Below the pieces are notes generated by a model, which was not told the DNA's origin, did no database searches, and saw nothing but the letters and a program-made list of their open reading frames with translations. The translations under genes and the position numbers were made by a program. A DNA stretch of 64,000 nt, from contig DYTO01000001.1 in the NCBI GenBank assembly GCA_020725895.1, positions 30,894-94,893 of the forward strand, in the 5' to 3' direction. The stretch is from Candidatus Hadarchaeum sp. (GTDB lineage: Archaea; Hadarchaeota; Hadarchaeia; Hadarchaeales; Hadarchaeaceae). Of this stretch, positions 22,488 to 54,913 are shown piece after piece; within the stretch, counting starts at the first letter, position 1, and each line of letters begins with the position of its first letter.

Positions 22488-23669
22488 ATGAGGGGCTTGA
22501 CTCACTTCATGATGGGGATGATGGTTGCCACGTTCTTCAAGAGCCTTATGGTGGGCGCGGCCATGCAGGACTCGCTCCTGATAATATTGGGCGGAGTGTT
22601 TGGCCTGCTTCCGGACACTTTGGACTTTAAGTTCCTCGTGTACGTGGAGCCGCAGGACGCTGTCATCGACCCCGACCCGCACAACATGAACCCGCAAGAC
22701 ATCGCGGAAAAAATCGCGGCCGAGATAAACCACACGGACCAGATGGAGCCGGGCAAGATGAGGCGGCTGCAAACGCACACATTGAAGCTCGGTCCCGACC
22801 TCTGGCAGTCGTACAGCATAAATTTCAACAAGGCGAAGCGGCAGGTCGAGGTGAAGGTCGGTCCGCACGTCACGATGAGCGGAATGCCGGCATTCGGGAC
22901 GGAGCCGCCGACGGACAAGGCTTTCGGGGTGGCGAGGTACAATCCTAAGCTCATTGATGTGTACGGAAGGGCGACCGAGGTTAAAGGTTTCAGCGGGCCT
23001 TCGTTCGGTTTCCTGAAGAGGAAGGATGGGGCGGTCGAAGTCGTTTTCATCCCGTTCCACAGGCGCTCCGGTCACAGCATGACTATGGGTTTCGTTTTCG
23101 CGCTTATCGGTTGGTTGCTCACCGGGGTCTGGCAGGTCGGAGGCGTCATACTCGCCGGATGGACGATGCACATCGCACTCGACTCTTTCGGCCACCTCGG
23201 GAACAACCTTTTCTGGCCTGTGATGAAGCAGAGGACAAGCGGGCTTTACCTAGTCAGCGCGTCAAACCCGTACTGGAACGCGTTCGCGATATACTCCTGC
23301 ATCGCGCTAATATTCTGGAACATGAACATGTACAACGCTTCTGTCAGCCCGGCGTACACGGTTGCCTGGATGACTTCGCTCGGACCCGCGCTTTACATTT
23401 TGTCGGTCATACTCATCCCATGGTCGATACTCGGCGCGATCTATTTCACATACCGCAAGAAAACGAAGGGGCAGAGGTCATACGAGCTATTCGCTTCGAC
23501 GACAGAGGTTGCGGGAGCGGCCGAGCCAGAGTCGGCGGGAATCGTCGAGCAGGAGCACTACTACGAGGTAGACGAGAAGCAGAAGCCATCCATGTTCTGG
23601 AGGGCGCTGGGAATCGGCATACTCATTGTGATTATGGTCATCCTGTTCGCGTACGGGCCGACCTGGTGA
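22488..23669 (+). CDS. membrane-bound metal-dependent hydrolase-like protein (DUF457/YdjM-like N-terminal domain) with extended C-terminal TM region
   Basis: MRGLTHFMMGMMVATFF N-terminus, HSMTMG and HIALDSFGH histidine motifs as in DUF457. 393 aa with additional TM helices and a charged tail. Confidence 0.45.
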   Translation: MRGLTHFMMGMMVATFFKSLMVGAAMQDSLLIILGGVFGLLPDTLDFKFLVYVEPQDAVIDPDPHNMNPQDIAEKIAAEINHTDQMEPGKMRRLQTHTLKLGPDLWQSYSINFNKAKRQVEVKVGPHVTMSGMPAFGTEPPTDKAFGVARYNPKLIDVYGRATEVKGFSGPSFGFLKRKDGAVEVVFIPFHRRSGHSMTMGFVFALIGWLLTGVWQVGGVILAGWTMHIALDSFGHLGNNLFWPVMKQRTSGLYLVSASNPYWNAFAIYSCIALIFWNMNMYNASVSPAYTVAWMTSLGPALYILSVILIPWSILGAIYFTYRKKTKGQRSYELFASTTEVAGAAEPESAGIVEQEHYYEVDEKQKPSMFWRALGIGILIVIMVILFAYGPTW

Positions 23670-23671
23670 AG

Positions 23672-23680
23672 TTTTTTAAA
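23672..23680 (+). promoter_or_regulatory. TATA-box-like element (ttttttaaa) about 28 bp upstream of tRNA-Trp
   Basis: Position and composition typical of archaeal tRNA promoters. Confidence 0.35.
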
Positions 23681-23704
23681 GTTGGTTTCTTAGATTACTC
23701 TGGC

Positions 23705-23852
23705 GGGGTCGTAGTGTAGCTTGGCAGCACACCGGCCCAGAACCGGGCTGAAGGCAGGCTCCAGTGGATGCTTGTAGGTCTGCTGACGAAAGGATGATGA
23801 CCTATTGGAGCGGTGAGACCTGCAAATCCGGGTTCAAATCCTGGCGACCCCA
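23705..23852 (+). tRNA. tRNA-Trp(CCA) with 53-nt intron between positions 37/38, plus a possible second roughly 20-nt insertion 5' of the anticodon stem
   Basis: Acceptor GGGGTCG (23705-11) pairs CGACCCC (23845-51), discriminator A 23852. D-arm GTGT/ACAC. Anticodon stem GCAGG (23754-58) pairs CCTGC (23819-23). Anticodon loop CT-CCA-G, anticodon 23761-63. T-arm CCGGG-TTCAAAT-CCTGG (23828-44). Intron 23765-23817. An extra CGGCCCAGAACCGGGCTGAA (about 23733-23752) between D-arm and anticodon stem is unexplained. Confidence 0.6.
23765..23817 (+). ncRNA. tRNA-Trp intron with box C/D-like guide RNA motifs
   Basis: Canonical C' box ATGATGA (23794-800) and D' box CTGA (23783-86); degenerate terminal boxes (TGGATGC 5', GTGAG 3'). 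Guide TGTAGGT (23773-79) pairs exon ACCTGCA, placing the N+5 nucleotide opposite tRNA position 39. Guide TTGGAGC (23805-11) pairs exon GCTCCA, with G23808 opposite C34. Confidence 0.45.
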
Positions 23853-24010
23853 CCTCGATTCAAACGACAATATTTGACAACCTTTTTACAAGGCAGATAA
23901 CAGAGTTATTAATGATGTCGTTCAACATAAGCGCGATGTCAATTTCGAAAGGACGTTTTTGCATGACTAAATTATTTCCAAACCCGGAGCTTGCGTGGGG
24001 GGGGCAATAG

Positions 24011-24298
24011 ATGGTTTTAGATACGATCATATTTGGCGTACTTGGATTGATGGCCGTACTAGTTGGCATAAAACTAGTTTCATATTCAATTAGAAACTCA
24101 AGAATACTGAAGGGCGCGAACGCGCGATACCTGATATCAATGGGTGTGCTGCTTCTAGTTATGGGTGCGGCAACCCATGCTGTTCATCACCTCTTTCCAG
24201 AAGAATTTGATATTGGTGCGGAAGAGGTTACACTTGCAGCTTATTCCGTTGGTACATTACTTATGATGATCGGAACAACGCGCGCTATTGGTTGTTAA
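24011..24298 (+). CDS. small membrane protein (2-3 TM), possibly the detached membrane anchor of the downstream PAS sensor
   Basis: 95 aa, hydrophobic. In the same reading frame as the 24350 ORF, separated only by a single TAA at 24296-98. Confidence 0.4.
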   Translation: MVLDTIIFGVLGLMAVLVGIKLVSYSIRNSRILKGANARYLISMGVLLLVMGAATHAVHHLFPEEFDIGAEEVTLAAYSVGTLLMMIGTTRAIGC

Positions 24299-24349
24299 AA
24301 AAGCATCCGGAAAGTTACCATTGCGAAAATTGCTGAAGACCACCCAGGG

Positions 24350-25689
24350 ATGGCACCTTTTGATCAGCTCATTTATTTTGTTACCAATTTTACTTCCGGT
24401 TTCGGCGCTTGCTTTCACCATCAATCCAGAAGTGGAACTTTTTCATGCGGCAATCATGGTTTTTTGATTGTCATGTTCTCGATTTTCGCAATGGGGGAAA
24501 GGATGGTTCGGTCGGCCATTCATCCGGTGCTGATTTCTGCGAGGCGAGGCCCAGAAGGTGAGGTGCTCAGGGCAGACATTCACACCGTTGTAGCATACTC
24601 TGACCTCATATCGCGATTTTCCGCCGCCACCACTTTGTCAACTGGTATTGATCTCCCGAGAGAAGTGTTATCACAGTGCATCACTAGACACGATGTTCTC
24701 AAGGGCTGCGAGTTCGATGACAAGGGATTTTTCAAGTCTGAATGTGCGGTAGAAAATATAACTAAGATGAATCAGACAAAATCTTTACCAATGATTCGCA
24801 ACGCTTATTCTGAACTCGCCACACGTTTGATAACTCTTTATGGTGCCGCGACATCTCCATGCATCGCCAAGGAAACCTTCGAAAAGGCATACAAAGCGGT
24901 TAAGAACGAATACCCAACATTGCAAAACTTCGTGGAGATTACGCGGGGATTGCCACCCGGGATTCTGGACGATGAGAAGTTGGCATTTTCAAAAAAGGAG
25001 GAGCTTGAGCAGATGGTAAAGCAGAAGACGGTCGAATTGCAGAAGAAGGTCGAAGAACTGGAGCGCACGCAATATGGACTTTCGGTTAGCGAGAAACGTT
25101 TTGGAAACTTGATTAGCATGCTTCCAGAACCGATTTTTGAGGCCAATGAAGAGGGTGAAATCACTTTCCTGAACTTGTCAGCGCACGATAGTTTTGGCTA
25201 TACTCCGAAAGATTTCGACAAGGGAATAAACGTGTACCAACTTTTGTCCACGGAGATCGCGAGAAGGCAAAGTCATGCATCGATGAAGCGATTAAAGAAA
25301 AAAAGGTTTGTAGCGAGGAGCTAAATGCCGTTAAAAAAGACGGAGAAAACTTCCCTGTCTTGATGAGGGTAAGCCCAATAATTTACGCGGACAGACCGGT
25401 CGGCCTGAGAGGCATCTTCGTTAACATCTCGGATCGAAAGCAAATCGAGCAGGTGAAACGCGAAGGCTTGATTCAGACTATCAAAAAATTGCAGATGGCG
25501 CGGAAGACAGTTCTGCCGGAACCAACGTTGGATAAACTAAGGAGAACACAAATCGAGGCGATTGATACAATCAAAAAACATCTTGAGGTCGGTAGGCCAT
25601 CGCCCGTAGTCGAGGCGTACAAAGAGTTACTCGCAAAACCGTTGGAAGGAACTAAAGCACGCAAAAAGCAACGTCGAAAAAAGACTTGA
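24350..25689 (+). pseudogene. PAS-domain sensor protein gene interrupted by a 1-nt frameshift (or sequencing error) near 25241-25250
   Basis: ORF 24350..25324 ends ...EEGEITFLNLSAHDSFGYTPKDFDKGINVYQLL, the first half of a PAS fold, then reads out of frame to a stop. The -1 frame continues VHGDREKAKSCIDEAIKEKKVCSEELNAVKKDGENFPVLMRVSPIIYADRPVGLRGIFVNISDRKQ, the second half of the PAS domain, into ORF 25360..25689. The shift occurs at the cttttg T4 run. Confidence 0.5.
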
Positions 25690-25800
25690 TTTTTGATAAA
25701 ATGCGTAGATTAAATCCGAGATTAAAATTCAAGTGATTCCACCAGAATTTCCCAGAATTTCATAACTTTATTAAACAATACAATCAACTAAGGTGAAATC

Positions 25801-26279
25801 ATGGACCGAAAAGGAATCTCTCCGGCGATAATAATCGTGGTGGTCGTTGCAGTCGTTGGAGTTGCCGGAGGCGCGATATTGCTAACGCGCGGAGGCACAG
25901 GCGGAGTCGTGCGGGGTCTCTTCAGCTTCAAGTTTACAGTACAGCATGGAACTGAGCGGCGGGGGGGACGTCGCTGACGGGCACTGTTTACATGAAAAAC
26001 ATCGGGCAGAGCAATTTCAAGATCAGATACGACACGATATATGAGAACATTGAATCAAAAGTAATCGGTGACGTGGCATAAAACAAGGTGTGGGTCTGGA
26101 CCTCATCAACTGATTGGGTGGAGACTCAAGATGCCGACATCTCATCTTACAATTTCTCAAGTCAACTTTCGGGCTGGACTGGAGGAGACTACACAGCCAC
26201 CGTCGGCGGCACCACGATAAGACTTTATGATGTCCAAGTGAACCCGACTCTTGCAGATTCGATGTTCACTCCAGCTTGA
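25801..26279 (+). pseudogene. archaeal type IV pilin-like (class III signal peptide) gene disrupted at a G7 homopolymer and by an in-frame TAA
   Basis: MDRKGISPAIIIVVVVAVVGVAGGAILL is a prepilin-peptidase-type signal (KG|ISP). The frame terminates at 25975-77 just after the G7 run (25961-67). With 8 Gs the frame stays open to TAA 26079-81, reading ...GTSLTGTVYMKNIGQSNFKIRYDTIYENIESKVIGDVA. The same frame then continues as ORF 26088..26279. Local GC is low. Confidence 0.45.
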
Positions 26280-26309
26280 GTCAATTCAAAAAATATTCTG
26301 GGATTCAAC

Positions 26310-27479
26310 TCACTTGTTTATGTGCACAACCTTCGCTGGCGGGAAGCCGTTGAAGTAAGTCGACGAAGCAATCGAATAAGCCCCGATGTTCTCGGCGTAA
26401 ACCAAATCATCTATTTCAAGATCAGGCAGTTCGTCCGAAAGTGAAATAGTGTCGAACGCGTCGCACGTCGGCCCGAACGTCGCGCTGATTTTCTTCTCGC
26501 CTTCCTTGAATGCTTTCAACGGGTAAAGGCAGTGGTCGAAAACTTGGCCGGAAAAGGTGTGGTAGACTCCGTCGTTCAGGTAGTAGCAAGGCTTCCCCTC
26601 CCTGAACGCCTTCCCGATGACCTTAGCCACGAGCGTGCATGCGTCAGCAACGATGAACCTCCCAGGCTCGGCGATTATCTGCGTGCCCGGCGGGAACAGC
26701 CTCTTAAACTCGGAATTTATTTTTCTAGCCAAAGTCTTGAACGATTTCACATGCGGATCGTACTTGACCGGGAATCCACCGCCGATGTCCAATATCTGAA
26801 TTTTCCTCCCCCTCAACTCGACCTCCTTGAAGATCGACGATGCGAGGTGAAGCGCCTGCACGTAGTTGTCAAAGTTCGTGCACTGGCTCCCAACGTGGAA
26901 ACTCAACCCTTCGACCACAAACCCAACCTTGTACGCTTCCTCGATCAGGTCGACCGCCTCGCCCGGGTGTGCCCCGAATTTCGAAGAAAGCTCTACCATC
27001 GACCCGGTGTTAGGCACCCTTATCCTGAGGACAAGCCCCGCGCTCGGGCAATGTTTCTTTATCTTTTTTATCTCCTCGATGTTGTCGTAAGTCACGAGCG
27101 GCTTGTAGGGTTCGAGCGCCTCCAGCGTCTCGGCCGGCTTTATCGTGTTCGCGTATATTATCTTGTCCCAGATGAAATCCTGCCTCTCCTTCCCGGGTAG
27201 GTGCTTGATGTTGTCATAAACGAGCATGAACTCCGGGAAGGAAGCGACGTCGAAACTCGCGCCCATCGCATATAACGTCCTTATGATTTCCGGGTTCGAG
27301 TTGGCCTTCACAGCGTAGTAAGCTTGGACATTGGGCAAATGCTCTTTGAACTCGCGGTAATTCTGCCTTATTTTTTCATGGTCAATCACGAAGACCGGCG
27401 TGCCGTGCTCTTTCGCTATCAGCCTGTACAATTCCTTGTCTATTCCTTCTTCCTCTTTTTTCATTGCAGACCCAACCAT
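26310..27479 (-). CDS. PLP-dependent group IV decarboxylase, ornithine decarboxylase-like (Orn/Lys/Arg/DAP family)
   Basis: YAVKAN PLP-lysine motif, GGGFPV, FHVGSQ (ODC-type), CYYLNDGVYH. 389 aa. Confidence 0.8.
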   Translation of the reverse strand: MVGSAMKKEEEGIDKELYRLIAKEHGTPVFVIDHEKIRQNYREFKEHLPNVQAYYAVKANSNPEIIRTLYAMGASFDVASFPEFMLVYDNIKHLPGKERQDFIWDKIIYANTIKPAETLEALEPYKPLVTYDNIEEIKKIKKHCPSAGLVLRIRVPNTGSMVELSSKFGAHPGEAVDLIEEAYKVGFVVEGLSFHVGSQCTNFDNYVQALHLASSIFKEVELRGRKIQILDIGGGFPVKYDPHVKSFKTLARKINSEFKRLFPPGTQIIAEPGRFIVADACTLVAKVIGKAFREGKPCYYLNDGVYHTFSGQVFDHCLYPLKAFKEGEKKISATFGPTCDAFDTISLSDELPDLEIDDLVYAENIGAYSIASSTYFNGFPPAKVVHINK

Positions 27480-27494
27480 GGTAATTAGATGATC

Positions 27495-28955
27495 TCACGG
27501 TATAAATAGGAAATTTTTGAATTGCCAAGGATCATCATCGTTTTTCGCGTCGGGGTTTTCCTTGAAGAAGACTTTCCTGTTTTTCAGCGGCGTCCAGTCA
27601 TAAGGTTTCGAAACGATTTTTCCGAGGTAAGGCCCGGCAACTTTCAAAATGTATTCGTGTGGGAGGTCGTCAGGCAGGCAGACGCCCATTCTCGGGTTCT
27701 CCAACATCCAGCAGACGGCAGAAACAACGCCCGCCGCCACTTGAAGCGTTGTCGCGTTTTCCCCCGGCGCAAGCATTCTAGCCCCCTCGATGCTCAGGAC
27801 GCTCCCAGTCCACCACGAGTTGTACCTGTGACCCATCAGCAGTGCCCCTAGTATATCGTCGCCCTTCGTTATCTCGTCGTTCATTATCCTGATTTTCGGC
27901 TGCATCTGGTAGTTCCTCGACCGCAGCTCGTGAAGAGATGAAAGAGTTTCGTGGCAGGCGTGGTACGCGTAGTGGACGGTCGGGCGATAGGCGGCCTCAC
28001 CGTTGTTCCACACAGTCAACCGATCAGAAATCCCGAATGCCTCACCGTGTCTGATCATCATCCCGACGATTTCCTCCCCAGGTATCCAAGATCTCACCCA
28101 GGTGTTGATTCCCATCTGGGCGAGGAATATCTGGTTCTTGGGCCCGTAAGGTGGCACATGAGCGAGCTTCGGCAGTTGCGTTTCGTGCGTGCCCCAGCCC
28201 ATCTCAGCAGGCGCAGTCCCCTCCTCCCTTAGCCCCTCTATGCTCCAAGTCCCGACGAACTCGTTGACCTCCTTTGGCCTCTTTGTGATCTGGGTGTCGC
28301 GCTCGCTGCAGTGTATGACCTTCACGCCTAGGTTCATCGAAAGCTCAGCGAAGTTCCTTTCCTTTATCAGTCGCGATAGCTTTTCCGCCGCCCCTTTCGA
28401 AACTTTTTTGTCGGAAATCAATTTTTTCGCGATATCGATAAGCCCCAATTTCGTGAAGTGGGAGATCAAACCGGGGTTTGCGCCGTGGTCCAGCACAGCT
28501 GTCGGGGAATCCTTCCAGTCCTTGATCAACTCCCTTATCTTCATCTGCCTGTAGTAGAGCGATTTTTCGAAAGGCGATTTCTTGTCCATGTCCTTTTCAG
28601 GATCCCACTGCTCGACGGAAGTGTTGACGTAGAGGACGTCGTGGTCGTGGCACCACTTCAGCAGCGACTGGCACTCGATGTTCCAGGCGAGGTCGACGAT
28701 CAGCCCGCCGCTGCCGACATACTTCGATAGCGTTTTTTCGAGATTTTGTCTTGTTATTTTCATGTGGACGAATTTTACCCCCCTGTCCGTCCATTTCTTC
28801 AGTATTTTCGACTTGTCTTCGAAATCGATTATCGTGATGTTCTTGCAAGGGATTTTGACATGCTTCAGGAGTATGGGCAGCGTGCACTTCGCAACCGCGC
28901 CATAACCGAGCATCAGAACCTTTTTTTCAAACTTCAACTTTTTCGCGACTTTCAT
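27495..28955 (-). CDS. homospermidine synthase-like / saccharopine dehydrogenase-family NAD-dependent enzyme
   Basis: 486 aa. N-terminal Rossmann LMLGYGAVAKCTLPILLKH closely resembles the bacterial HSS N-terminus (G-F/Y-G-x-I/V-x-x-x-TLP-L/I-x-x-H). The size fits bacterial HSS (about 480 aa) rather than CANSDH (about 400 aa). Directly upstream of the decarboxylase gene on the same strand. Confidence 0.55.
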   Translation of the reverse strand: MKVAKKLKFEKKVLMLGYGAVAKCTLPILLKHVKIPCKNITIIDFEDKSKILKKWTDRGVKFVHMKITRQNLEKTLSKYVGSGGLIVDLAWNIECQSLLKWCHDHDVLYVNTSVEQWDPEKDMDKKSPFEKSLYYRQMKIRELIKDWKDSPTAVLDHGANPGLISHFTKLGLIDIAKKLISDKKVSKGAAEKLSRLIKERNFAELSMNLGVKVIHCSERDTQITKRPKEVNEFVGTWSIEGLREEGTAPAEMGWGTHETQLPKLAHVPPYGPKNQIFLAQMGINTWVRSWIPGEEIVGMMIRHGEAFGISDRLTVWNNGEAAYRPTVHYAYHACHETLSSLHELRSRNYQMQPKIRIMNDEITKGDDILGALLMGHRYNSWWTGSVLSIEGARMLAPGENATTLQVAAGVVSAVCWMLENPRMGVCLPDDLPHEYILKVAGPYLGKIVSKPYDWTPLKNRKVFFKENPDAKNDDDPWQFKNFLFIP

Positions 28956-29048: not shown

Positions 29049-31472
29049 TTGGGTGATAACATGCAGCAAAGGGTCGTGTTCCCATTCTCAGCGATCGTCG
29101 GCATGGACAAGCTCAAGCTGGCTATTTTGATAAACGCGATAAACCCGAAAGTAGGTGGTTTGCTGATTCGTGGCCCGAAAGGCTCCGGAAAGACCACGGC
29201 CGTTCGTGGACTGTCGGAAATTCTTCCGAACATAAAAGTTGTTAAAGATTGCCCTTTCAAGTGCAACCCAAGCGACCCATCCAACATGTGTTCGAAGTGC
29301 ACTGAGCGTCAGGGCCGAGGAGAGCAGCTTCCCGTTGAAGAGAGGAAAATGGCAGTGGTCAATCTCCCGCTCGGAGCCACCGAGGACCGCGTTATCGGGA
29401 GCTTGGACGTCGAGAAGGTGATCAAGCAGGGGATCGAAGCTCTCGAACCCGGGATACTGGCGGACGCGAACCAGAACATCCTTTACGTCGACGAGATCAA
29501 CCTCCTTCCTGACCACATTTCGGACGATCTCTTGGACGCCGCCGCGACGGGATGGAACGTCGTCGAGCGCGAAGGAATTTCCGTGAGCCATCCGTCACGT
29601 TTCGTTTTCATCGGGACCATGAACCCTGAGGAGGGGGAGTTGAGGCCGCAGCTCCTCGACAGGTTCCCGCTATCTGTGGGCGTCGATAAAGTCGCATCGG
29701 CCGCTGAGAGAATCGAAATCGTCAAGAGGAACATAGATTTCGAGAAGAACCCGGCAGCGCTGCATGAGAAGTACAAGGCAGTTCAGGAGGAACTCAAGAA
29801 GAGGATAGGCCAGGCCCAAGAGACCCTACCGAAAGTAAAAATTTCTGAGAAGCTTTTGATTTTGATAAGCAAGGTATGTCTCGATTTGAAAGTTGACGGG
29901 GTCCGGCCGGACATAGTGATCGCGAAAGCAGCCGCTACTCTGGCAGCTTACGAAAACAGGAAGAACGTTATACTGAAGGATGTCGTCCTTGCCACCGAAC
30001 TTGCGCTGGGCCACAGGACTAGGGAGGGTGGATTTTTGGAGCCAGCAACGCCGGACGACATCAGACAGGCGATTGAGAAAAAGGCGCAAGAAACGCAATA
30101 TTCTGATGAGGACTTTTCAAAGGAATCCCCGCCGTCAGGTACGGAAGAAAGGGAAGATGAAACAGATGTGGTGGACGAGCCGGAGCCCCGTATTCGCGAC
30201 AAGCCCTCGTTTAAATCCGATAAAGATTCCAAAACGAGCTACAAGGACCAATCTTTCAAGGGCACAATGGAGAAGAAGCAATCAATTTTCTCATCTGCAA
30301 TCGGAAAACTCGTTTACGCCCTAAGAGGGAAATCGAAGGACGAGCAGGAGAAGATTGACTCCCCGAAAGGCGGGGAGGCGGGAGGAGAAGGCGGCGCAGA
30401 AAGGATTTTCGACGACATCGGAGAAGTCGGTGACGCCATTCCATCGGTGAGCGCAGCTTTGACCGCGCTGGACGTGACTAGTGGTGCGCTGATTTTAGAA
30501 AAGATAGAAAGAAGCACCCTGCCGGCCACAAGTCTCTCTTTCAAGATAAAAAAGAAGACGCGAGGCATCAAAAGCAGCAGTGCCGGGAAGCGGGCCGAGG
30601 CCGTCTCGACCCTCCATCGCGGGCGCGCATACGGCTGGAGATTCCCAAAGGGAAAGCCAAGGGACATTCATTTTCCAGCGACGATCAGAGTGGCCGCGCG
30701 AAGGCAAAAGTTCAGGGAAAAACCGGCCGCCGCCGCGCTGAAGATATGCATGGAGGACGTCAGGGAGAAATCCAGGCTCTACAGGGCGCCGATGACGATA
30801 GTATTCGTGATCGACCTGAGCGGCTCGATGAGGTTTAGCGTAACCGAGGCGAAGCAGGCGATATTGAAGCTCCACGGAGACGCCTATCGCGGGAGGGACA
30901 AGGTCGGTATCGTCGGATTCAAGGGGACTGGCGCGGTCGTCGTCCAGCACCCGATCTCCAACCTTAGAGTCGTCGCAAACAAGCTCTCAACACTGAGGGT
31001 TAGTGGCTTCACGCCGCTCGCGGCAGGGATGCTGAAGGCTTGTGAGGTCCTGAAGGCTTGCAAGAAGAGAGACATGTCGACTATTCCTGTGATGGCCGTG
31101 ATAACCGACGGATGCGCGAACGTCCCTCTCAACAGGAGCCTTGACACGGATGAGGTAAGGTTGTTCAACGAGATGGGCGTAGACAATGGCGCGTATGATT
31201 ATTTGGCGACTAAGGATGTGCTCGACGTTTGTAAGATTATAAAGAAGGAGGGAATCTACACGATTTCAGTCAACACTAACCAGTACCTAACGGGCCGCAA
31301 CACGTACGGCTACTGGGTGACGAGGCAGATTGCACTGCGGACGAACGGCGCACACCACGAGCTTGGCAGGTTCGAGGGGAAGCTCCTGGCGAGCAAGATG
31401 TTTTCGAGCATGAACGAGGATCGAAGGATGATTGGGCTGGATGCTTCGACGAATCGCAATTTACACGGTTGA
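29049..31472 (+). CDS. Mg-chelatase ChlI/ChlD-family AAA+ ATPase fused to a C-terminal vWA domain
   Basis: Walker [10 protein letters not shown], Walker [11 protein letters not shown], sensor/arginine-finger region, then a Cys4 insertion [17 protein letters not shown]. An acidic/Pro-rich linker follows, and then a vWA domain with [15 protein letters not shown] ... GFT. 807 aa. Confidence 0.8.
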
Positions 31473-51083: not shown

Positions 51084-53273
51084 TCAAGGCTCGAAGAACT
51101 CGCTCGGCTGCGGGACCTCAAGCTTCAGACCCTTGCGCTTGCGGGTGTCTCGCACGACTTGGTCCTGAAGTTCCCTTGGCAACCTGTCGAACTTTTCGAA
51201 CTCCGTCGCCCATATCGCGCGCCCCTCCGTCTCGGACCTGAGCTCGGCAGCGAGACCGAATGAGTTTGCGACAGGCATGTTAGCTTTCAGGATTGCTATG
51301 TCCTCGTCGGTCTCCATGTTGACGATCTTCCCGCGCCTGCCCTGGATGACCTTCGTTGCCCCGCCCATGAACTCCTGCGGGACCCTGACTTCAAGCTTCA
51401 GGATAGGCTCCAGTATCATCGGCTCCGCAAGCAAGAAGCTCGCTTGTATCGGGCGCCTGACCGCCGGCAATATCTGCGCAGGCCCTCTGTGGACCGAGTC
51501 CTCGTGAAGCACAGCGTCCTCAAGCATGATTTTCATCCCCCTGCTCGGCTCTCTCATCAGCGGCCCCTCGTCAACAACGTTCTGGAATGCTTCCACCAAG
51601 TGGTCCTCGATCTCCCTCAGGTACTGGACACCTTTCGTCATGTCCACGAGCATGTTCGGCCCGCTTATCGTGATTATGTTTCTGGCGGCGTGGGTTTCCC
51701 ATCCCAAGTCCCTGAGCACGGCTGCGCGCTCCTTCCTCTCCTGGTCGTTTGTTATCTTCTTCTCCTCGATTGCGGCGACCACTTCCGGCGCCAATGGCTC
51801 CACGGAAATCTGGAACCGGTTGTGGCGGTTCGGTGACTTTCCTTCCACCGGCCCACCTTTCTTGGTGATAGTTTCCCTGTACACGACGAGCGGCGGGGAA
51901 GTCTTGACCTCGAGCCCCGCCTCTTTCAGCTTGTACTCTACAATCTCCAGGTGGACCTCGCCCATTCCGGAAACCAAATATTCCCCAGTCTCCTCGTTTA
52001 TCTTGACGCGGATGTTCGGGTCCTCCCTCGCGATCTTTTTGAGCCTGTCTATGAGTTTCGGAAGCTCCTGGAAGTTCTTCGGCTCGACGGCCACCGTGAC
52101 CACAGGCTCGCTGATGTACCGGATGTCCTCGAAGCCCTTCGCCTCTATTCCCTCGCTGACGATCGTCTCGCCGACCTGCGCCCCCTTCATGCCTATGAGC
52201 GCGGCTATGTTGCCAGCAGGTATCTTTTCGACAATCACCCTGTCGGCACCCATGTAGACTGAGACCTGCTGGATTTTCGAGTCCTGCTTTGCGTTAAGCA
52301 GCCTGACAGACTTCCCTTTCTCAACAGTCCCCGAGAAGACTCTCCCCGTGGAAATGACACCCGCCTGTTCGTCGACTATTATATCGGTTATCACCATGCA
52401 AATCGGGCCACTCTGGTCCGATTTTAACATCGATTGGCCGAGCGGGCTTGTTATGTCTCCTTTCCAGATTGTCGATATCCTTGCCTCCTGCGCCTGCTTC
52501 GGGTTGGGCAGGTGCCTTATGACCATGTCGAGGATGACCTCATACACTGGGCTTTTCTTAGCCAAGTCCTCCGGCTTGCCCGTCGTGTAAGCGTCGATTA
52601 TGTCCTTGAAAGTCATGTTCTTCTTCTTCATCTGCGGGACGGAGAGCGCCCACTTCTCCTTCGCCGAGCCGAATACAACTGAGCCGTTCTCGACGTTGAC
52701 GGCCCACTTCTCCCCGACGTCCTTCGGGGCGAACCTCCTGATCAGCTCGTTGAATTTCATGATTAGCTTTATGAACTTTTGCTGCATCCCTTCCGGCGTC
52801 AGCCTGAGCTCACTGATGAGCCTGTCTACCTTGTTTATGTAGAGGACCGGGCGCGTCCTCTCCGAGAGAGCCTGTCTGACCACGGTCTCCGTCTGCGGCA
52901 TCACACCTTCAACTGCGTCCACGACAACGACGGCGCCGTCGATCGCGCGGAGCGCCCTAGCCACGTCTCCGCTGAAGTCGACGTGCCCCGGAGTGTCAAG
53001 GAGGTTGACGAGGTAGTCCTTCCCCTCGAGATGGTGGAGAAGGCTGACGGCCGACGTCTGGACGGTTATGCCGCGCTGCTGCTCGATCTCCAGGTAGTCC
53101 GTGAAAAGCTGGTCTCCCGCGAGTTCGAAGCTTATGATCCCCGACGCCGCGACGAGAGAGTCCGAAAGAGTTGTCTTGCCGTGGTCGACGTGGGCGATTA
53201 TTCCAATATTTCTGATGAAGTCCTGCTGCCACATCAGCTTCTGCACATCGTCAACGTGCTTGTATCTTCGCAT
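51084..53273 (-). CDS. fusA: translation elongation factor 2 (aEF-2)
   Basis: IAHVDHGKTTLSD G1 motif, DTPGHVDF, GTPase plus domains II-V. 729 aa. Confidence 0.95.
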   Translation of the reverse strand: MRRYKHVDDVQKLMWQQDFIRNIGIIAHVDHGKTTLSDSLVAASGIISFELAGDQLFTDYLEIEQQRGITVQTSAVSLLHHLEGKDYLVNLLDTPGHVDFSGDVARALRAIDGAVVVVDAVEGVMPQTETVVRQALSERTRPVLYINKVDRLISELRLTPEGMQQKFIKLIMKFNELIRRFAPKDVGEKWAVNVENGSVVFGSAKEKWALSVPQMKKKNMTFKDIIDAYTTGKPEDLAKKSPVYEVILDMVIRHLPNPKQAQEARISTIWKGDITSPLGQSMLKSDQSGPICMVITDIIVDEQAGVISTGRVFSGTVEKGKSVRLLNAKQDSKIQQVSVYMGADRVIVEKIPAGNIAALIGMKGAQVGETIVSEGIEAKGFEDIRYISEPVVTVAVEPKNFQELPKLIDRLKKIAREDPNIRVKINEETGEYLVSGMGEVHLEIVEYKLKEAGLEVKTSPPLVVYRETITKKGGPVEGKSPNRHNRFQISVEPLAPEVVAAIEEKKITNDQERKERAAVLRDLGWETHAARNIITISGPNMLVDMTKGVQYLREIEDHLVEAFQNVVDEGPLMREPSRGMKIMLEDAVLHEDSVHRGPAQILPAVRRPIQASFLLAEPMILEPILKLEVRVPQEFMGGATKVIQGRRGKIVNMETDEDIAILKANMPVANSFGLAAELRSETEGRAIWATEFEKFDRLPRELQDQVVRDTRKRKGLKLEVPQPSEFFEP

Positions 53274-54625: not shown

Positions 54626-54710
54626 GCAGGGGTAGCCAAGCCAGGTCTACGGCGCTGGATTCAGGGTCCAGTCCTTTAGGGGTTCGGGGGTTCGAATCCC
54701 CTCCCCTGCA
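54626..54710 (+). tRNA. tRNA-Leu(CAG), class II with long variable arm; CCA encoded (54711-54713)
   Basis: Acceptor GCAGGGG pairs CCCCTGC. Anticodon stem CTGGA/TCCAG with loop TT-CAG-GG (anticodon 54662-64). 13-nt variable arm. T-arm GGGGG-TTCGAAT-CCCC(T). Discriminator A. Confidence 0.85.
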
Positions 54711-54913
54711 CCATAGGTTGAGAAGGCGAAATAGGGCTTCTTTCAGGATTTCCGTATGACAGGCGTCCTGCTTTTGTCAGGACAAATGAAAGTTGCTCCA
54801 GCTCGGGTTTAGAACCCCTGAGCCGGTAGGGAATAGATATTTTACACGACCAACGCATAATTCTCTTTGTAGATATACACGGTGAAGGTGAGATAAAAAG
54901 AGAGGATGAAAAG

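Follow-up and report, generated by a model that had tools for sequence, protein, structure and literature searches.

The 64,000-nucleotide (nt) stretch of the Candidatus Hadarchaeum sp. contig DYTO01000001.1 analyzed here, referred to below as the window, contains a tRNA-Trp gene with anticodon CCA (23761-63) that is interrupted by two introns, the second of which has features of a box C/D methylation guide RNA (Table 1). The gene was matched by the Rfam tRNA covariance model RF00005 with 35.6 bits (gathering score 29) and an 83-nt insert. By default, ARAGORN called no tRNA at 23705-23852, and its intron mode called a tRNA-Asn on the raw precursor, which was rejected as spurious; the miss and the false call are both due to the double interruption of the gene. 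When 23731-23752 and 23765-23817 were both taken out of the sequence, ARAGORN reported tRNA-Trp(cca), and when only 23731-23752 was cut, it placed a 53-nt intron at position 37 of a Trp(cca); it gave no sensible call in any other case. An earlier interpretation made from the letters of the DNA (the sequence-only reading) had proposed a tRNA-Trp(CCA) with a 53-nt insert at 37/38, and both the Rfam match and the position-37 intron bear it out. The 73-nt spliced molecule folds into a cloverleaf (-31.8 kcal/mol); the minimum-free-energy fold of the whole precursor was neither tRNA-like nor of the bulge-helix-bulge (BHB) type and was set aside. The CCA end is not encoded, the gene being followed directly by CCT downstream of 23852. 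As exon 2 and intron 2 both terminate in AG, the 37/38 junction can equally be written as 35/36 or 36/37. No second tRNA-Trp was found in the 64-kb window by ARAGORN or Rfam.

Table 1. Features of the tRNA-Trp locus in the window (guide 1 and guide 2 are the antisense elements of intron 2).
Feature	Coordinates	Strand	Basis
Putative A/T-rich TATA-like element TTTTTTAAA, ~28 nt upstream of the tRNA 5' end	23672..23680	+	sequence reading
tRNA-Trp(CCA) gene, two introns, 148 nt	23705..23852	+	RF00005; ARAGORN after removal of both inserts
Exon 1: tRNA positions 1-25, acceptor 5' strand and D-arm	23705..23730	+	cloverleaf; same sequence class as intron-less orthologues
Intron 1, 22 nt, non-canonical position 25/26	23731..23752	+	BHB scan, covariation, intron-less orthologues
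Exon 2: positions 26-37; G26, anticodon stem 5' strand GCAGG, loop CUCCAG	23753..23764	+	cloverleaf, ARAGORN
Intron 2, 53 nt, canonical position 37/38	23765..23817	+	ARAGORN; sub-threshold Rfam sR3 alignment
Degenerate box C remnant UGGAUGC	23765..23771	+	sequence; under box C in sR3 alignment
Guide 1 (D' guide) UUGUAGGUCUG	23772..23782	+	register-based pairing
Box D' CUGA, canonical	23783..23786	+	sequence; invariant in clade
Loop between D' and C', 7 nt	23787..23793	+	sequence
Box C' AUGAUGA, canonical, 7 nt past D'	23794..23800	+	sequence
Guide 2 (D guide) CCUAUUGGAGCG, 12-nt spacer	23801..23812	+	register-based pairing
Degenerate box D remnant GUGA, 3/4 matches to CUGA	23813..23816	+	under box D in sR3 alignment
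Last intron 2 base G	23817	+	sequence
Exon 3: positions 38-73; A38, CCUGC anticodon stem 3' strand, variable region of 4 nt, T-arm, acceptor 3' strand, A73	23818..23852	+	Rfam, fold, ARAGORN

Intron 2 has the internal boxes of a guide RNA, namely a D' box CUGA, a short loop and a C' box of the form RUGAUGA, and this C'/D' pair is predicted to be able to form a kink-loop (K-loop). On either side of it lies an antisense element. Guide 1 forms 10 consecutive base pairs (bp), one of them G-U, with 23816-23825 (A-G-A38-C39...A45), so that G23778, the fifth nucleotide upstream of D', is opposite C23819, i.e., position 39 of the tRNA (the N+5 register). Guide 2 forms 10 bp with G31-G37 and the first three intron bases (23758-23767), which places G23808, the fifth nucleotide upstream of the D-like box and the eighth after C', opposite C23761, i.e., position 34. 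Intron 2 thus has the two antisense elements of about 10 bp expected of a guide, with 11- and 12-nt spacers and with positions 34 and 39 as N+5 targets. The layout CUGA-N3-9-RUGAUGA occurred in 64 of 200,000 shuffles of intron 2, and both antisense matches appeared jointly in 14 of 20,000 shuffles with any register allowed. The boxes named in the sequence-only reading (C' ATGATGA, D' CTGA and terminal C- and D-like boxes) were all recovered, and its assignment of the antisense elements to positions 39 and 34 agrees with the two 10-bp duplexes in N+5 register.

A permissive Rfam scan aligned 23764-23818 end to end with the sR3 family (RF01133; 17.9 bits, E 0.018), with GGAUG under box C, where there is a 4-nt deletion, and GUGA under box D. 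At the gathering threshold, sR3 was found exactly inside the tRNA-Trp introns of Archaeoglobus (locus L014, 66 bits) and Geoglobus (L049, 48 bits), as well as in the long-intron metagenomic genes L161, L179, and L144, the overall range being 48-66 bits. sR3 is the tRNA-Trp intron guide of Archaeoglobales; it follows from this location that sR3 is the described family and that intron 2 of the window is a divergent, truncated relative of it. sR3 has been described as a Pyrococcus sRNA; the tRNA-Trp introns of three Thermococcus/Thermococcaceae loci (L108, L063, L072) gave no sR3 match at the gathering threshold, and the only tRNA match at L108 was a neighboring gene.

A degenerate tRNA-Trp pattern, applied to a genome collection, retrieved at least 119 loci, among which intron-bearing tRNA-Trp genes occur throughout Archaea. 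The most window-like genes among the matches listed come from metagenome-assembled genomes of Hadesarchaea/Hadarchaeota and have near-identical exons. A clade-specific core pattern yielded 92 metagenomic loci, which de-duplication reduced to 36 distinct Hadarchaeota-type sequences, including that of the window. Both guide duplexes are present in the identical register in all 36. The invariance of CUGA in this clade was partly imposed by the core search pattern; GAUGAUGA, from the C' region, was present in 10 Hadarchaeota genomes (among the matches listed) retrieved by a pattern that did not demand it. In the 36 sequences, the pairs of guide 1 with positions 38-40 and 43 (guide bases D'-4 to D'-6 and D'-9) are essentially invariant, as are, without exception, those of guide 2 with positions 31-36. 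The remaining pairs vary: position 41 is paired as G:U (24 sequences), G:C (9), or A:U (2), with one A:C; position 44 as U:A (18) or C:G (3), the remainder being mismatched; G37 as C:G or U:G (18 each); the first intron base (i+1) as A:U (34) or G:C (2); and the third (i+3) as C:G (35) or U:A (1). Positions 41 and 44 for guide 1, and i+1 and i+3 for guide 2, are therefore co-varying guide-target pairs. The proteins encoded by the flanking genes have diverged to 40-71% amino-acid identity while D', C', both antisense elements and their spacing have been retained; the loop and the terminal regions of intron 2 vary freely across the clade. Since the first intron bases are needed, the full duplex of guide 2 can form only on the unspliced precursor. 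In the window, splicing leaves the target of guide 1 (A36-G37-A38...) unchanged, and in 10 relatives with an intron ending in AA guide 1 pairs better after splicing.

The terminal boxes of intron 2 are eroded. In the window, the box C remnant has four of the seven RUGAUGA bases and retains the GA dinucleotide, and by inspection the kink-turn (K-turn) contacts open to GGAUG and GUGA are limited to G-A, A-G, and U-U. In a set of 39 clade sequences, the remnant preceding the 11-nt guide is UGGCAA in 16 and variable elsewhere, and the tetramer at the D position is GUGC in 22, GUGU in five, or others, GUGA being limited to the window. As the terminal boxes are not conserved in the relatives, the terminal K-turn motif is eroded clade-wide, and the degeneracy pointed out in the sequence-only reading is a trait of the clade, not of this copy. 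We considered whether UGG(AUGC) is conserved as a true box C and rejected it: UGG covaries with guide 2 and owes its conservation at the 5' end of the intron to this pairing, and the rest is variable. Where the remnant is UGGCAA, the outer helix of the splicing motif is formed by GGCA and UGCU, which explains the conservation of GUGC; no box D is required. A group of metagenomic genes (L144, L145/L156/L157, L146/L163, L161, L173, L179, L128/L168, L125/L199) has the same guide cores with full canonical C/D boxes, in introns of ~80-115 nt with extra sequence after box D; these look like the un-eroded state of the guide element.

The splicing motif of intron 2 overlaps these remnants. The BHB that the sequence-only reading required at 23764/65 and 23817/18 is only half borne out: the 5-bp anticodon stem and the bulges AG|U and AG|A (3 nt each) are in place, but the motif is of a relaxed, not canonical, type. 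This form is usual in the clade, with a central helix that is 3/4 paired in 34 of the 39 sequences and an outer helix reduced to 1 bp in 16. A strict-geometry BHB scan ranked many chance pairs above the true sites of intron 2 and is not discriminating alone; for this reason comparative data were used for this intron. In the window, the 3' strand of the BHB central helix (23812-15) shares bases with the D-like GUGA, and the 5' splice site lies within the duplex of guide 2. Guide and splicing conformations should therefore be mutually exclusive, and the precursor would have to refold between methylation and splicing. A second K-loop produced by circle closure (GUGA-GUG-GAUG) was also considered and rejected, as relatives with UGGCAA and GUGC, on inspection, do not have the GA dinucleotides needed.

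For intron 1, the strict-geometry scan returned a BHB that would be cut after 23730 and after 23752 and that has the two 3-nt bulges around a 4-bp helix characteristic of such introns. The central helix is formed by C20-A21-G22-C23 (23725-28) and GCUG (23747-50), with 4/4 pairs, and is flanked by the bulges AC|A (23729-31) and AA|G (23751-53); 23732-35 and 23743-46 (CCGG/CCGG) form a 4-bp internal helix closed by the loop 23736-42. Inserts of 21-22 nt are found at the identical 25/26 site in five genes of the same clade as the window (L100, which is Candidatus Hadarchaeum yellowstonense YNP_45, L126, L152, L155, and L206). A 21-nt insert at 25/26 is also present in the tRNA-Trp of Candidatus Aenigmatarchaeota (L056; PWHK01000017, approx. 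509-673, + strand), a distant lineage; it has the same BHB design, with the central helix CAGC:GCUG and bulges AC|A and AA|G, and could reflect shared ancestry, transfer or convergence. In the alignment of these seven genes, all 56 pair cells of the BHB are standard pairs, and four of the eight pairs show changes on both sides. The central helix occurs as CAGC:GCUG or UAGC:GCUA, and the internal helix as CCGG:CCGG, CCAG:CUGG, CCGG:CUGG, or CCAA:UUGG. None of 500 shuffle controls attained the observed values, and slid registers of the helices were merely 18-54% paired. Moreover, the predicted ligated sequence GCAC|GGCAGG is that of the intron-less orthologues L031, L073, and L030. The distribution of intron 1 is patchy (6 of the 36 distinct clade genes). 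On this comparative evidence, intron 1 is best described as an ordinary small BHB intron whose predicted central helix borrows the D-loop/D-stem bases C20-C23. The ~20-nt insertion that the sequence-only reading took for a possible second, non-canonical intron is thus a second intron with a BHB supported by covariation; its limits had to be moved from about 23733-23752 to 23731-23752 (22 nt). An origin as a transposed intron with paralogues was considered as well, and a scan of the window that allowed up to 3 mismatches revealed no further copy.

Additional inserts upstream of the 37/38 guide intron, one or two in number and ~19-70 nt in length, were seen in the tRNA-Trp genes of Nitrososphaeria (L010, L035, L043, L079, L090, L103), Bathyarchaeia (L048), and the loci L052, L061, and L042/L102. 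Archaeal-type tRNA-Trp genes with box C/D guide introns were also found on contigs binned as Neisseriaceae (L009) and Deltaproteobacteria (L105), which look like mis-binned archaeal contigs.

Taken together, these observations make it probable that this tRNA-Trp(CCA) gene is functional, that both of its introns are of the endonuclease (BHB) type and that the second is a shortened homologue of the box C/D guides of the sR3 type. Several points weigh against this interpretation. The spacer of guide 1 is 11 nt instead of 12, guide 1 forms an A-C mismatch with position 41 in one relative (L148), and the sR3 score of intron 2 (17.9) is below the Rfam gathering score of 41. The BHB of intron 2 is relaxed, with a central helix CUCC/GGUG paired in three of four positions (U33-U23814 mismatch) and an outer helix of 1 bp; the BHB of intron 1 has an exon-side outer helix of 0 bp in the window, although in the relatives, as we read their sequences, it has 2 bp. 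Terminal C and D boxes able to form a K-turn were not found, UGGAUGC and GUGA being degenerate, and the second K-turn of intron 2 is doubtful, while the symmetric archaeal C/D ribonucleoprotein (RNP) normally needs it. The guide might be half-active, with an RNP assembling on the C'/D' K-loop alone and only the D' guide directing methylation, at C39; the guide 2 duplex would then be a structural or chaperone helix, or else Cm34 would be measured from box C'. The predominant D-position tetramer GUGC is devoid of the A required for the sheared pair, the usual 5' remnant UGGCAA has no GA, no Hadarchaeota-type intron attains the sR3 threshold (L100, L111, L030, L074, and L031 all fall below it), and the GUGCU-GGCA outer helix accounts for GUGC without a D box. 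Guide 2, however, keeps its 10 bp throughout the 36 sequences, with a G opposite C34 at 8 nt past C' and 5 nt before D, and it covaries with i+1 and i+3, which is the geometry of a working guide; the GGAUG/GUGA of the window also retain, on inspection, the G-A, A-G, and U-U contacts. We hold a half-active guide to be rather unlikely. Slightly less probable is the further idea that the clade guide has lost its terminal C/D K-turn and become a natural single-K-loop (C'/D'-only) methylation guide, in which the anticodon stem/BHB scaffold, or a ruler from C' (C34 being opposite the eighth spacer base in all members), may replace box D.

A different explanation of the sub-threshold Rfam score and the eroded terminal boxes is that the guide has decayed, so that intron 2 now serves in splicing only, its boxes and complementarities being relics or folding aids, and no guided methylation takes place. 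Loss of the guide function would be tolerated, since the Haloferax intron and its methylations are dispensable for growth (Joardar 2008, as quoted in PMC11408192 and PMC4090602). Relics, however, would hardly be maintained by compensatory changes that preserve the guide-target pairs, nor would D', C', the antisense elements and their spacing be expected to persist next to proteins that have diverged so far; we consider decay improbable. As to the first insert, the missing exon-side outer helix in the window and the minimum-free-energy fold of the insert alone, which is a different 6-bp hairpin, could suggest that it is not spliced, the locus being a pseudogene or the source of a tRNA that carries an additional arm between D-arm and anticodon stem. 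The BHB register, and no other, has been kept with compensatory changes in seven genes, the orthologues without the insert have exactly the ligated sequence predicted, tRNA detectors reject a molecule that retains it, and the gene is the sole tRNA-Trp found in the window and occupies a conserved syntenic position. Retention of the insert is thus highly improbable, and the functional gene with two spliced introns is the interpretation followed below.

We infer the following course of transcription, RNP assembly, methylation, splicing and intron circularization. Transcription would yield a 148-nt precursor, on which L7Ae, Nop5, and fibrillarin would assemble at the canonical C'/D' K-loop and perhaps, weakly, at the eroded C/D remnant. 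Guide 2, paired with G31-G37 and the three intron bases, would bring C34 to the methylation position on the unspliced precursor only, and guide 1, paired with A36-G37-A38-C39...A45, would do the same for C39 on the precursor or the spliced form. The precursor would then refold, as the guide 2 duplex and the terminal-box remnant exclude the BHB, and the splicing endonuclease would cut at both introns and ligase join the three exons. The excised intron would probably become a circle.

The gene content of the window is archaeal and includes aEF-2 (51084-53273), an archaeal GluRS, a DGGGPL-reductase-like protein, type-2 IPP isomerase, and RNase J. Upstream of the tRNA-Trp gene there are genes for a geranylgeranyl-reductase-like protein, an OB-fold/Zn-ribbon protein, TctA, and a YdjM-like membrane protein, which are syntenic with the tRNA-Trp loci of the clade, including the Hadesarchaea contigs L030 and L031, at the 40-71% amino-acid identity given above. 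The window tRNA-Trp is orthologous to the Hadarchaeota tRNA-Trp genes, and synteny together with the similarity of the tRNA places the organism in or near Hadarchaeota, though at some distance from each of the genomes retrieved. A search for an exact match to the protein of the neighboring gene gave nothing. The TATA-like element (Table 1) is a putative archaeal promoter; A/T-rich elements were seen by eye at a similar distance upstream of related tRNA-Trp genes. A scan for sigma-70 promoters and intrinsic terminators, which is not applicable to archaea, returned nothing. The opposite strand beneath the gene carries no gene, and the open reading frames (ORFs) 23111-23719 and 23813-24010, which clip its ends, are probably spurious. 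About 5 kb (24011-28955) separate the tRNA-Trp from a cobaltochelatase-like gene (29049-31472). This block contains a 95-amino-acid ORF, a protein matching PAS weakly (below the Pfam cut-off) and Orn/DAP-decarboxylase-like and saccharopine-dehydrogenase-like genes, the last two possibly a polyamine pair; in the relatives L164, L166, and L193 the chelatase homologue lies within ~150 nt of the tRNA-Trp. An integrated element beside the tRNA was considered and rejected, as neither a repeat of the tRNA 3' end nor a convincing direct repeat was found. An intron-less tRNA-Leu(CAG) with a long variable arm, detected by both ARAGORN and Rfam, is located at 54626-54713 (+).

The locus is a lineage-specific variant of a described system in which a methylation guide resides in the tRNA-Trp intron; here it is accompanied by an ordinary non-canonical BHB intron. 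The finding does not overturn the current understanding. What it adds is modest: a minimal size of 53 nt, a clade-wide erosion of the C/D boxes with both guides retained, and a patchy 25/26 intron. With it, the known range of the intron-borne Cm34/Nm39 guide comes to include a Hadarchaeota-like lineage, and both guide duplexes are seen to survive a reduction of the element to 53 nt in which the BHB overlaps the terminal boxes. As default tRNA finders miss the gene, the only tRNA-Trp candidate detected in the window would be left unannotated, and other genomes of the clade probably share this gap. The patchy intron and the intron-less orthologues in each sub-lineage provide a clean set for studies of tRNA intron gain and loss. 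If the terminal K-turn proved dispensable, the clade would be a natural minimal substrate for work on box C/D RNP assembly, and the single-K-loop alternative, if true, would represent a cis-acting C/D RNP of minimal size (51-60 nt) at odds with the rule that archaeal sRNPs are symmetric with two K-turns.

The tRNA-Trp intron in Haloferax volcanii and in other Euryarchaeota is known to contain a box C/D RNA guiding Cm34 and Um39 (PMC11408192, PMC7994747, PMC4090602), and the Haloferax guide and the Pyrococcus sR50 intron guide are attributed in these sources to Clouet d'Orval 2001 and Singh 2004; the claim that positions 34 and 39 are the residues guided in Haloferax and Pyrococcus is thus documented. 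Intron 2 shares with the Haloferax, Pyrococcus, and sR3 guides the host tRNA-Trp(CCA), the 37/38 site, the order C-guide-D'-C'-guide-D and the N+5 targets, and its guide cores GGGUCUG-CUGA and UUGGAGC are nearly identical to the sR3 consensus. It differs from them in that its terminal boxes are eroded clade-wide, no bases are reserved for the BHB, which overlaps those boxes, position 39 is a C instead of U, and the tRNA carries a second intron. It is also shorter, with 53 nt against a median of 65 nt for tRNA-Trp introns (PMC4090602), although the description of it as half the usual length was overstated and holds for the 105-nt Haloferax intron only (PMC3326292).

Position 25/26 is a listed non-canonical intron site in archaeal tRNAs, and Pyrobaculum islandicum tRNA-Pro(UGG) has introns at 25/26, 37/38, and 56/57 (PMC4090602). 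The window gene resembles such multiply interrupted genes in the combination of a 21-22-nt 25/26 intron, with 3-nt bulges and a 4-bp helix, and a canonical intron; it differs in the host, a tRNA-Trp of a Hadarchaeota-like lineage, in the patchy occurrence of the 25/26 intron and in showing, with its single copy in the window, no sign of intron transposition as in Thermoproteales. Disrupted tRNA genes have already been reported in Hadarchaeota (Hadesarchaea), whose EndA is of the alpha4 type and carries the L3 loop, a form linked to increased disruption of tRNA genes (PMC5829648). A precedent for the loss of boxes with retention of the antisense elements is the Sulfolobus solfataricus tRNA-Trp intron, 65 nt long and present as a stable circle, which is complementary to positions 34 and 39 and has no consensus C/D boxes (PMC3326292). 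According to the same source, no boxes at all are recognizable in S. solfataricus, whereas in intron 2 of the window the terminal pair is eroded and the internal C'/D' pair is canonical.

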